This document shows, one piece after another, positions 7-29,379 of a DNA stretch of 64,000 bases. A program made the position numbers and the translations under genes. Position 1 is the stretch's first letter. Each line of letters opens with the position of its first letter. The notes under the pieces were generated by a model. The model did not search any database, was not told where the DNA came from, and saw only the letters and a program-made list of their open reading frames with translations. The DNA is from Podospora anserina (Eukaryota): NCBI GenBank assembly GCA_017654855.1, contig CM030333.1, positions 434,001-498,000 on the forward strand, given 5' to 3'.

Positions 7-1863
7 ATGAACGTGAGCATCAACGGCGACATCATCAAACTGCCCAACAAGTACTCTTTGGATGTTACCCCTGTTGACATCCAAGAGCCAGACGCTGCTT
101 GCTTTATGAACAGGGAACACGGCGAGATCCTGGCCACTCTCAAGCTCCTCAAGCCCAAGGCCCGCTTACGCCGTATGAAGTCCGAGCTTCACGAAGAGAG
201 CGTTCTGAAAGATCTGGATGACTTCTTGTCCCAACAGAGTGGGAAGCCTCCAAAGGTCGTCGCGGCAAGCAAGGAAGCTCAACGCCAAAACCGTAGGTCA
301 TCGGGGCATTGGAGCAGCCATGACTCTGGAATCTCAACCAGTTCTGAAACCTCTGGCCTTCAGAAAGAGATGCCTTTAGGGGCACATCACCGAACACCTG
401 CGGAAGGTCACCGCTTTCAGACACTACTCAGCCGCCTACACTTGACCACGGAGACAAGAGAAGCTTCCCAGCCGCCGACAGCACCTGATCATGCTGAGAC
501 GTCGAAGAGCCATGCTCAGGTGGTGGATCCTGCAATTATCGCCGCAAAGGTCAAAGACGAAGAGCGCGAGGAGACGCCCGACAACTCGGAAAGGGGCGCG
601 CGCGAAGGTACCTTTTTCGGAAGGGATTCTACCTTGCTGTTTGGGAAGGGTAAATGGGCGCAAAAATCACACGATTCTGGCTATTCAACATTCCATTTCA
701 TGAAGCAGGGCACACAAGAACCAACAAGGCCCAAGGCGGTCGAGCATTTTGGTCCTACGGTTCAGAAGCGCAAAGAAGATTCAACATCATGTTCAACCAC
801 CTCAACCAAGTTGAATCCCACAGCTGCCGAATTCAAGTCGGTCACCAAAGGTGACCTCAAGTCAGGGGTGAAGAGCGATTTCAAGCCCGCGCCTGCAGCT
901 TATCCTGCCCCTCCCTGGACTCCAAAAAGACGGACACGGCCTTTACTCAACAATATCTTTCCTGGTGTACTGGAAGATCCCGGTTTCATGGCCCAGACAG
1001 TGCCATTTGTGGCAAACGATTGTCTTCAAGGTAGTCCATGGCAGACAAGTGGTCCTCCAACAGGGCCAGTGTGGGTGGCTGAACCGGGACAGCCTATCCC
1101 AGAGATGGCCTTCCAACCACCAGTAGCACCAATAGCAATGGCACCTCTTCCCATTGTTGATCCAGTTACGCAGCAGTTGGTCCCACCACCCTTCGCTCCT
1201 CCGCCCAGCAACTTTGGAACCTTCCCGCCTTCCGGAATCGCTCCTATTGCCAGCCAGATGCCAGGTCCCAACCCCGTATTTAGCACGCTTCCTCCATTGC
1301 GGCCTCCCCCAGCCCCCAGACCAAGATTTTCTCAGCCTATCCCGATTCCTCCTGGGCAAAGAGCCCCTATGCCCGCCGTGCCGAATGCAACTAGCTTCCA
1401 AGCACCTACTCTATACGGTCCAACTCTTGTTGCCGGTCCACCGCCTCCTTTGGCCTAGGATGGCAAGGGACCACGACCGGTATTTCCCGTCACCCAGAAA
1501 CCACGAGACCATGACCCTGTGAAGCAGCAGGCATATGAATCGTATCTGGAGTGGCGAAAGGCCAATGAGCCTGGCTATCACATGAAGTGCAAAATGCGTC
1601 AAGCACACCGTGTGGTTCGTCAATACCAGCAACAGGCGCAGACTGCTGACTGGAAGACCGTAGCTGGGCAGGCCAAAGCAGCAGCTGGAGCGTTGGAAGC
1701 ACATGCAGCCGAGGAAAAGAGGAGGTCAAAAGAAGCAGCTCTCAAGGAGCAATTCAAAATGAGTGTGAAGAGGGTAGCAGAGTCCTCTGGAGCCACGGAG
1801 ATAAAGGAACAAACACTTCCGGACACGAATAATGAAAAGCAAACACAAACATTGGTCATATAA
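7..1863 (+). CDS. Hypothetical Pro/Ser-rich protein with an in-frame TAG at 1456-1458; the 5' end may lie upstream of the window
   Basis: ORF 7-1458 and ORF 1519-1863 are in the same frame, separated only by TAG (GCC TAG GAT GGC AAG...). The downstream part has a protein-like motif, QKPRDHDPVKQQAYESYLEWRKANEPGYHMKCKMRQ. The frame is open from base 1. Confidence 0.75.
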
Positions 1864-6827: not shown

Positions 6828-8629
6828 ATGGCAACTCTTGCACCATCAGCCATCAGACAGGCATCTCGCTTGGCATCCAAGTCGGCCCTCACTGCTGCAC
6901 CCCGTCATGGCCTCCAGCAGCTATCACGAGTAGCATCCGCGCCTGTCCAGCGCACTGCTGGCAAGAAGAGGAGCTATGTGACCGAGTCGAAGCGGGATAA
7001 CGCCCAGGTCCAAACCGAAACCGCCATCCGTCTCGACAGGAAGGAGCTGGAGAAATCCGGACTCACCATCACCTCCGAGAATGGCTCGACCGAGCATGTC
7101 AGCCCAATGGCTGGTAGGTCTTTTCCCATTACGACTCGATATCTCGGCTCTAGCATGCTAACTCCGAGCTCGCAGATGTCCTGAAGGCGGCGACCATAAT
7201 GGATGAAGGCCAACGGCCCATCTATATGGATATGCAGGCCACAACTCCACTGGACCCCCGCGTGCTTGATGCCATGATGCCCTACTACACAGGCTTTTAT
7301 GGCAACCCACATTCCAGGACGCACGCGTACGGATGGGAGAGCGAGAAGGCGGTCGAAGATGCGAGACAACATATTGCCAGCCTTATCGGGGCCGATCCCA
7401 AGGAAATCATTTTCACCAGCGGAGCCACGGAAAGCAACAATATGAGCATCAAGGGTGTCGCCAGATTTTTCGGCAGGTCCGGCAAGAAGAAGCACATCAT
7501 TACCAGTCAGACCGAGCACAAGTGTGTGCTTGATAGCTGCAGGCATCTCCAAGACGAAGGGTTTGAGGTGACATATCTTCCCGTCGAGTCCAGCGGTCTC
7601 ATCAACCTTGACAAACTGAAGGCCGCCATCCGCCCCGACACAATGCTCGTCAGCATCATGTCGGTAAACAACGAGATCGGTGTCATTCAACCCATCGAGG
7701 AGATTGGCAAGATTTGCCGGGCCAACAAGGTCTTCTTCCACACAGATGCTGCTCAAGCAGTGGGCAAGATTCCTCTGGATGTCAACGCGATGAACATTGA
7801 TCTGATGTCCATCTCTTCCCACAAGATCTACGGCCCCAAGGGAATTGGAGCTTGCTATGTCCGCCGGCGGCCGAGAGTGAGAATTGACCCCATCATCAGC
7901 GGTGGTGGCCAGGAGAGAGGTCTTCGTAGCGGCACGCTGGCTCCCGCCCTTGTTGTTGGGTTTGGTGAGGCGTGCCGCATCGCAAAGGAAGAAATGAAGG
8001 TATGTCTCAACTTTTTCCATGGTTCGCGTTACACATACACATCCCCTGGTTTCACCTGATGATCTGCTCATACATGCATGGCTTTCTGAAGTCCGTGACA
8101 AGACTGTACTGTTGAGAGACAGCGCCTTTTCTGATTGAAACCTTCCCTTCTTTCTCTTTTGACACAACCGAATATTTTGCTTAGGTGGAGCTAACAGGCA
8201 AAACAGTATGATTCGCAGAGAATCAAGTTCCTTTCCGACCGGTTACTCAACGGTCTCCTGTCGATGGAACACACGAGCCAGAACGGTGACCCGAACCACT
8301 TTTATCCCGGCTGCGTCAATGTCTCGTTCGCCTATGTCGAGGGTGAATCCCTGCTTATGGCGCTCAAGGACATTGCCTTGTCTTCGGGCAGTGCCTGCAC
8401 CTCGGCATCGCTGGAGCCCAGCTACGTATTACGAGCCCTGGGCAACAGCGACGAGAGTGCGCACTCCAGTATCCGGTTCGGTATCGGCCGGTTCACCACG
8501 GAGCAAGAGATCGATTACGTCCTGAAGGCGGTGACAGAGCGTGTGGGCTTCCTTCGCGAGCTGAGTCCTCTGTGGGAGCTTGTCCAGGAGGGTGTCGACC
8601 TCAACACGATTGAGTGGAGTCAGCACTAA
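6828..8629 (+). CDS. NFS1: Mitochondrial cysteine desulfurase, 3 exons: 6828-7113, 7176-7999, 8207-8629
   Basis: [39 protein letters not shown] (PLP lysine), RRRPR and SSGSACTS (catalytic Cys). Arg/Ser/Ala-rich presequence and canonical introns. Confidence 0.97.
8048..8142 (+). ncRNA. Intronic box C/D snoRNA in NFS1 intron 2
   Basis: Terminal stem GGTTTCA (8048-8054) / TGAAACC (8136-8142), box C TGATGA (8057-8062), D' CTGA (8086-8089) and box D CTGA (8131-8134). The guide ACATGCATGGCTT (8072-8084) is complementary to conserved 18S AAGCCAUGCAUGU. The host intron is 207 nt, the longest seen in this window. Confidence 0.88.
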
Positions 8630-28055: not shown

Positions 28056-29379
28056 TTGGGACGGGTAGTGCAAGAGATTGGATATGGATTGAAAAGGCAG
28101 GAACAGGGAGGCAATAGTTGTTGGGAGTTGAAGGAGCTGCGGAGTTGGAAAGTGTTGGACTGTTGGAATTTTGGAGTTCAGTTCATCCCCTTTCATCCTG
28201 GAAGGCATTTTCATGACGGGTTTTTTCGTTGTCATATCTTTTCATATCATTACATCGCATTCCCTTCACATCATCAACCTCCTACCACCAATCCCCCCCA
28301 GTTCCATCGTTTATATAAGGTATATACACCCTCCCGCATCACGTACAAACACTGCCATCACTTTTTTTCATCATGCATTGGGAGAGTTTCTGGAAATTCG
28401 GTTACACTCACATCATACATCACACACACGTGTCCCCAAACTTATCTACCTTGTCTTAATCAGCGCTCGCTTTCCCCGTCTTGACTGTTCAGTTCGGTTT
28501 CTATTCATGTTTCGTGGCAGGCTTTTCGTTCTGAAATGTGTGTTGTTGCATGGTTGGATCTGGTGTTCATCTCATGTCTTCGTTGTTGCTGCATTTTGTA
28601 TTTGCATCCTCTCACTTTGCAAGCATGCTTGCCCCATAATCATTGTCAAAGGAAAGGAGTATCTGGAATTTTGGAGAGTCTTGTGCGAGTATGGAAAGTA
28701 TTAGACAGTGCTATACCCCCCCTACACCCCCCTATTTAATAAAAGAATATCCATAGTTTTCAATCTTGACTCTTGTTTTGTATGTGACTGTGCTGGGTAA
28801 GATGCTTGGGTAGCTTATGACACAGTGGCATTGTTCAACCCACAGGAAATATCTGATGGCTTGGCCGTTAAGTTGGCAAGACAAAAGAAAGATAATCCCA
28901 TCAAGAGGATGGTGAGGATGTAAACGACAACCCAGTCCTTGGTACTGGGAGACAACGGTGCCAAGACTTGGTGATGGAGTCAAGTGGACCCCCAAAAAGA
29001 GCCAAAAACATACAACACCGAGGATTCCCCAGTGGTCACCCACCTGAGTACTGGTTCGGCCCTCAGCTGTTTGACTAGGGGAGAGCGGACGGGATCCCGT
29101 ATTTTCAGCTGGGTATGGTCGTATGTGATGGTTGTTGTTGATTCTTTGCCCTATATGTGAAGAGGTTTAGCCTAGCTGGGAAGCTGAGCCCATGATTGCA
29201 GCTTCCCGTGTTATTACGACTCAGTGATCGCTCCTGCCGTTGGTGGTAGATATGGGGATGTGCTGTCATTGGGAAGGTGCCACCTGCTCAAAGAAAACGG
29301 CAGAAGAGACAAGGAAGGGACGACGATGACTTGTCTACCTTGAGTTGTTGCTCTGACTTCCATCCCCCTTTACCTTTTA

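Follow-up and report, generated by a model that had tools for sequence, protein, structure and literature searches.

Intron 2 of the NFS1 gene raises three questions: whether it carries a box C/D snoRNA, which RNA that snoRNA would modify, and whether the choice of NFS1 as host has any meaning of its own. In the window, which is the whole 64-kb stretch of DNA analysed, the host gene was found to be a three-exon cysteine desulfurase of the IscS/NFS1 family (E 1.5e-134 for exon 2 and E 3.1e-62 for exon 3). A preliminary description of this DNA had placed a box C/D snoRNA in the second intron of the gene, and all of the parts that it listed were found in place. Table 1 gives the features of the window locus together with those of related loci. 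We conclude that the element in NFS1 intron 2 is a real box C/D snoRNA gene.

Table 1. Features of the snoRNA, of its host gene NFS1 and of other loci carrying the same guide. Positions are those of the window unless a locus is named.
Feature	Position	Strand	Remarks
NFS1 exon 2	7177..7999 (start approximate)	+	cysteine desulfurase, N-terminal catalytic part; 62-nt intron 1 spliced upstream
NFS1 intron 2, snoRNA host	8000..8206	+	207 nt, GTATGT ... CTAAC ... CAG
snoRNA precursor region, including outer stem	8048..8142	+	
7-bp outer stem	arms 8048-8054 and 8136-8142	+	
Box C, TGATGA	8057..8062	+	57 nt from 5' splice site
GCT after box C	8066..8068	+	in 14 of 15 aligned copies
D' antisense element, ACATGCATGGCTT	8072..8084	+	13 bp with 18S 46-58
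Spacer T between guide and D'	8085	+	
Box D', CTGA	8086..8089	+	
Short D'-C' hairpin	8090..8105	+	TGAC loop at 8096-8099
Probable box C', TGTTGA	8110..8115	+	positions kept in 14-15 of 15 copies, outside the search pattern
D-side spacer	8116..8130	+	only AGC(A/G) at 8121-8124 conserved
Box D, CTGA	8131..8134	+	72 nt from 3' splice site; in 15 of 15 aligned copies
Branch motif CTAAC, NFS1 intron 2	8191-8195	+	
NFS1 exon 3, coding part up to stop codon	8207..8629	+	
L019 double-guide C/D snoRNA	L019:1457-1544	-	eIF3k intron; D' guide 18S C49, D guide 18S A161
L020 C/D snoRNA	L020: about 520-592	-	C49 guide at terminal D box; 5' half with 13-bp complement to LSU 895-907
Tandem C/D repeats, C49 guide at D'	L004:57-219	-	
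Tandem C/D repeats, C49 guide at D'	L008:11-67	-	
Tandem C/D repeats, C49 guide at D'	L012:1501-1668	+	

Some details of the architecture go beyond the first description or depart from it. The base before box C is a C and not the purine of the box C consensus RUGAUGA. The box C', which the preliminary description had left unnamed, is most likely the TGTTGA listed in Table 1. The terminal stem of 7 bp is present in the window copy as claimed, but it is not conserved, since its cells are paired in only 33% of cases among the 15 aligned copies; the outer stem is specific to the window copy. A terminal stem is missing from many fungal C/D RNAs (PMC5824354). The predicted fold of the snoRNA was no better than that of shuffled sequences (z 0.02), as is expected for a C/D RNA. 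An RNA of about 85-95 nt had been anticipated; the mature form is probably about 81-87 nt and not 95, judging from the 81 nt of a Neurospora crassa relative described below and from the unconserved outer stem.

The splicing of the host intron was observed directly. A joint that skips the 207 nt with GT..AG borders was found in all three RNA-like runs examined (X1, X8 and X11) and was absent from the single DNA-like run, where RNA-like status is our guess for 16 such runs, none of which is on record as RNA. The 62-nt intron 1 was likewise spliced in contigs of X1, X8 and X11. Contigs derived from intron 2 were present in two of the three RNA-like runs at a depth of about 1/8 of that of the mRNA contig. 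They may represent unspliced precursor or an intron product, and contigs give neither the ends nor the level of an RNA. The contig from X8 covers 8045-8195, starting shortly ahead of the stem and ending at the branch motif, and that from X1 covers 8009-8206; the limits of the X8 contig were considered as snoRNA ends and dropped, as the X1 contig disagrees. The interior of intron 2 was uncovered in run X11, and in none of the runs examined did the 62-nt intron 1 appear as a contig of its own; neither fact is informative on expression. At position 7648 the window has a C and all four runs have a T, a discrepancy that reflects either strain variation or a mistake in the window sequence.

A search of the window against Rfam 15 returned no snoRNA. 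The only match at gathering score was to 5S rRNA, and a match to mir-557 (E 1.7) is of the level expected by chance. In eight related loci, weak C/D matches were found below threshold (snR75, E 0.94; sR43, E 0.21). The 5S rRNA match (RF00001, 91.9 bits) marks a dispersed 5S rRNA gene at window positions 29007-29126 on the minus strand.

The snoRNA is nevertheless already known. By sequence comparison it is the ortholog of Nc CD4 of N. crassa (EU780928), an intronic RNA of 81 nt from chromosome V, which was recovered as a cDNA clone and was positive in northern analysis (PMC2780460). Both copies have the same 14-nt guide, the same D' box and the same D'-hairpin-C' layout, and they further share the GUGACAAG loop, UGUUGA, AGACAGC and the GCU after box C. 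The core lengths are close (80 against 78 nt for Nc CD4 and the window copy, respectively), and a count by eye, not a tool alignment, puts the core identity at about 80% (about 65 identical positions out of about 81). The two differ in spacer bases, and the window copy has the 7-bp outer stem. In N. crassa the distance from box C to the 5' splice site ranges from 41 to 60 nt (PMC2780460), and the spacing of box C in the window falls within that range.

The searched text and supplements of Liu 2009 do not say which gene hosts Nc CD4 (PMC2780460). Because Canzler 2018 used the snoRNAs of Liu 2009 as seeds and extended the survey to 147 fungi (PMC5824354), CD4 orthologs were probably already collected there; CD4, C49 and NFS1 are not discussed in the available passages of that paper. 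Likewise, no mention of the C49 site or of an NFS1 host was found in the available parts of PMC3890542, PMC2377427, PMC5640933 and PMC4138321. Within a limited coverage of the literature, we found no paper naming NFS1 as the host of this snoRNA, and the identification of NFS1 as the host of the CD4 snoRNA is a small addition that is apparently unreported.

We then considered the target of the D' guide. The preliminary description had proposed that a 13-nt antisense element pairs with 18S rRNA at 46-58 and that the +5 rule points to C49. In the full-length 18S sequence of L038, which comes from another organism, the element forms 13 Watson-Crick pairs with 46-58, and G8081, the fifth base before D', faces C49. 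Antisense elements in C/D RNAs are 10-21 nt long, lie directly upstream of D or D' and place the target at +5, and the D' element is of this kind. We fetched 53 eukaryotic 18S fragments, all from eukaryotic contigs inside bacterial assemblies; 4 were too short and 49 reached across the site, and 44 of these had the 13-mer complementary to the guide at 46-58. A box C followed by a 13-nt perfect complement to rRNA (taken from about 2.9 kb of rRNA sequence) directly ahead of CTGA was found once in the 64-kb window. Among 1000 shuffles in which dinucleotide content was approximately preserved, 2 contained this combination; when the guide was shortened to 10 nt, the result was not significant (38 of 200 shuffles). 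The D' guide is predicted to direct 2'-O-methylation of 18S C49, and the same target was predicted for the D' guide of Nc CD4, with a 13/0 match (PMC2780460).

In collecting the 18S sequences, we noted that at least 53 contigs (L023-L075) in bacterial or archaeal assemblies carry a eukaryotic 18S motif and represent contamination, and that one of them has a group I intron within a eukaryotic SSU rRNA gene (L057:3948-4434, minus strand). In the viral collection, no match to the 18S primer was found.

No homolog of Nc CD4 is listed for S. pombe, S. cerevisiae, Arabidopsis or human (PMC2780460), in keeping with the earlier suspicion that C49 is not a standard site in budding yeast. Among the C/D targets listed for the 18S 5' domain, the closest is Am28 of Nc CD21/snR74/U27, which involves another guide and another site; that snoRNA has been conserved between yeast and human, for which no CD4 homolog is listed (PMC2780460). 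In the literature on 18S and rRNA methylation, we found no experimental mapping of Cm49, Liu 2009 being the only relevant paper, and nothing on Cm50. In the text available to us, Liu 2009 describes primer-extension checks of CD11 and CD29 and of no other RNA (PMC2780460). In Chaetomium thermophilum, 33 2'-O-methylated sites are given for 18S rRNA as against 18 in yeast, and the 18S figure has the label for position 50 next to H5 (PMC12723226), which places C49 in or at helix 5. Contact of helix 5 with elongation factors is a point of general background, for which our literature search returned no support.

It is conceivable that the RNA serves as a chaperone on 18S 46-58 during small-subunit assembly, with C49 left unmethylated or methylated only in part. 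Chaperone activity in the 18S 5' domain is known for other C/D RNAs, and the missing record of an experimental Cm49 would fit such a role. However, the D' box is a canonical CTGA, the 13 perfect pairs end one base from it, and none of the homologs and none of the three other layouts of the guide departs from this register; the 33 sites of C. thermophilum against the 18 of yeast also leave room for a further methylation. We regard the chaperone role as quite improbable, and predicted methylation of C49 as the better account of the D' guide.

To find relatives of the snoRNA, metagenomes were scanned with a pattern of box C, guide and D', and 22 loci were obtained. Fifteen of these lie in the same NFS1 intron, at the same codon position; 15 of 22 is a share of motif loci and says nothing about fungal NFS1 introns without the snoRNA. 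The 15 loci represent 12 distinct cores. In all of them the intron lies between NFS1 residue 273/274 (exon 2) and residue 1 (exon 3), and their exon 2 proteins are 84-90% identical to that of the window. Two further copies of the CD4 type lie in other hosts, making 17 in total. One of these (L015:1449-1543, minus strand) is in an intron about 100 nt past the stop of the reading frame of BMT2, a 25S rRNA m1A methyltransferase that is itself an rRNA modifier. The other (L011:375-464, plus strand) is in a non-NFS1 intron and has no D'-C' hairpin.

The alignment consisted of the window and 14 loci, after three duplicates (L003, L006 and L009) and five loci of other layout had been dropped. Since the loci were selected by the guide pattern, conservation of the guide in this set is circular, and we looked to the positions outside the pattern. 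Among the 15 copies, GCT was conserved in 14, TGAC in 14, TGTTG(A) in 14-15, AGC in 14-15 and box D in all 15. When each copy was folded alone, the D'-C' hairpin appeared as a stem of 4-6 bp, of differing sequence, in 13 of 15 copies; in the alignment the hairpin was 48% paired, a score lowered by the loss of hairpin register in the alignment. RNAalifold found no covarying pair among the aligned copies. A covariance model built from sequence only (R1) gave 74-86 bits for the window and three near-duplicate loci and 27-31 bits for the other layouts, but its training set contained the window, so that the window match is not evidence.

The D side behaved differently from what had been proposed. 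The preliminary description had suggested that the element before box D may be an orphan guide, and this did not hold up: positions D+2 to D+12 vary among the homologs, and no conserved target was found. When the 15 copies are lined up at box D, position D+5 holds C in 10 of them, A in 3 and T in 2, and there is wide variation at D+2, D+6, D+7, D+9 and D+12. The best D-side duplexes with the 18S, 5.8S and 5' LSU of L038 were 7-8 bp, including G-U pairs. The fungal-looking set shared no D-side target across 128 kb of rRNA-bearing loci; the best box-adjacent matches there were 9-12 bp, nearly all with G-U pairs, and fell in scattered places. A match to 18S 32-38 (7 bp, one G-U) was also considered and rejected, being found in 1 of 15 copies and lying 9 nt from box D. 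A second guide at 8117-8130, methylating some other RNA, is very unlikely, in view of this variation and of the listing of Nc CD4 without a D target (PMC2780460). In its favor, species-specific second guides are known in fungi, Nc CD29 being an example (PMC2780460), and the target tests covered rRNA, with snRNAs, tRNAs and the 3' part of fungal 26S falling outside them.

The one conserved block on the D side, AGC(A), has explanations that are simpler than a guide. The GCU at 8066-8068 is complementary to the AGC at 8121-8123, with 95% of cells paired and no covariation. The partners available to AGC(A) are this GCU after box C, the C' box (as part of CAGCA) and 18S 29-32; the data cannot choose among them because all of the candidates are invariant.

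The last of these partners belongs to a wider arrangement, in which the loop UGAC would pair with 18S 23-26, AGCA with 29-32 and GCU(U) with 67-70; the GCT at 8066-8068 is indeed also complementary to 18S 68-70. Such extra pairing would boost methylation of C49 or help the 18S 5' domain to fold, and it would add to the account given here and not replace it. For each of the three conserved blocks outside the boxes, a complement is found no more than 30 nt from the target; the expected numbers of such sites per 60 nt are 0.13, 0.33 and 0.23. Known extra-pairing elements are 4-11 bp long, and most of them occur either in the D'-C' interval or in the guide region that is not in use (PMC3116282). 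The yeast single-guide snoRNAs snR70 and snR75 (PMC3116282) are alike in having conserved short elements in the D'-C' loop and in the unused guide with complements near the target, but the candidate elements of the window copy are only 3-4 nt, invariant and provided with intramolecular alternatives. Against the extra pairing, the extent of these words was chosen after 18S had been seen, GCU has its complement in AGC (95% of cells paired), CAGCA also fits the C' box, no block covaries, L011 lacks the whole D'-C' hairpin, and a longer window-specific match, GACAAG with 18S 31-36, is found in only 4 of 15 copies. We therefore consider the extra contacts possible but doubtful.

The remaining question was the host. 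The preliminary description had suggested that hosting by NFS1 would couple its expression to rRNA modification, a claim left unsupported by the present data, as 2 of the 17 CD4-type copies are in other hosts. Since the snoRNA is intronic, it is co-transcribed with NFS1, and nothing beyond co-transcription is supported. It could be argued that the host has been kept because NFS1, as a supplier for Fe-S clusters and thiolation, must be co-regulated with C49 methylation, and the same intron position in 15 of the 17 CD4-type loci agrees with this. Yet the L015 snoRNA sits in an intron 3' of the BMT2 reading frame, the L011 copy has a non-NFS1 host, and the C49 guide is found elsewhere in an eIF3k intron or in a non-coding cluster. 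An intronic snoRNA would by default stay where it is, and an intronic location is usual, with 45 of the 55 C/D snoRNAs of N. crassa being intronic (PMC2780460). Co-regulation as the reason for the host thus appears unlikely, and the absence of a special link between NFS1 and its snoRNA is the reading that we keep.

The other carriers of the C49 guide are the five of the 22 motif loci that share the guide alone. They fall into three other layouts, each with a different second guide. In L019, the D guide forms 11 bp with 18S 158-168 (A161), and A161 is the D target of Nc CD32 (PMC2780460). In L020, a further box C motif is found in the next intron, which suggests that its host is a non-coding multi-snoRNA cluster. 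The D guide of L004 and L012 forms 13 bp with 18S 4-16 and predicts Um8, and L008 ends before that part; no host gene or splice context was recognised for these three loci. The layouts may have arisen from one guide by shuffling or may have been invented independently, and guide shuffling as a process was already described by Liu 2009 (PMC2780460) and Canzler 2018 (PMC5824354). A bolder interpretation, to which we give less than even credence, is that 18S C49 is a widespread and overlooked 2'-O-methylation site in helix 5 that is missing from the lists for the model yeasts, that its guide is a mobile module, and that the short contacts of CD4 take the place of a lost second guide and clamp the 18S 5' domain to either side of C49.

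Taken as a whole, the evidence very probably describes an ortholog of Nc CD4 with a single D' guide, which is spliced from NFS1 and is predicted to direct methylation of C49, with no special link to its host. The snoRNA would be transcribed as part of the NFS1 pre-mRNA and released by the splicing of intron 2, of which the splicing itself was observed. From general C/D biology, the intron would then be debranched and trimmed to about 81-87 nt, the RNA being protected by Snu13, Nop56, Nop58 and Nop1/fibrillarin. The D' guide would pair with pre-18S rRNA at 46-58, as it does in silico with the 18S of another organism, and by the D'+5 rule Nop1 would methylate the 2'-OH of C49. The D side would carry no guide, and NFS1 would be an ancient, probably constitutively expressed host without a special regulatory link.

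As it stands, the locus is one more ortholog of a published snoRNA and matters little. The CD4 family is missing from Rfam 15 and so stays unannotated, and the conserved NFS1 host provides a fixed place in which the snoRNA can be found and deleted. If C49 is methylated in filamentous fungi and not in budding yeast or humans, the lineages would differ in a region of the small subunit that is otherwise highly conserved.
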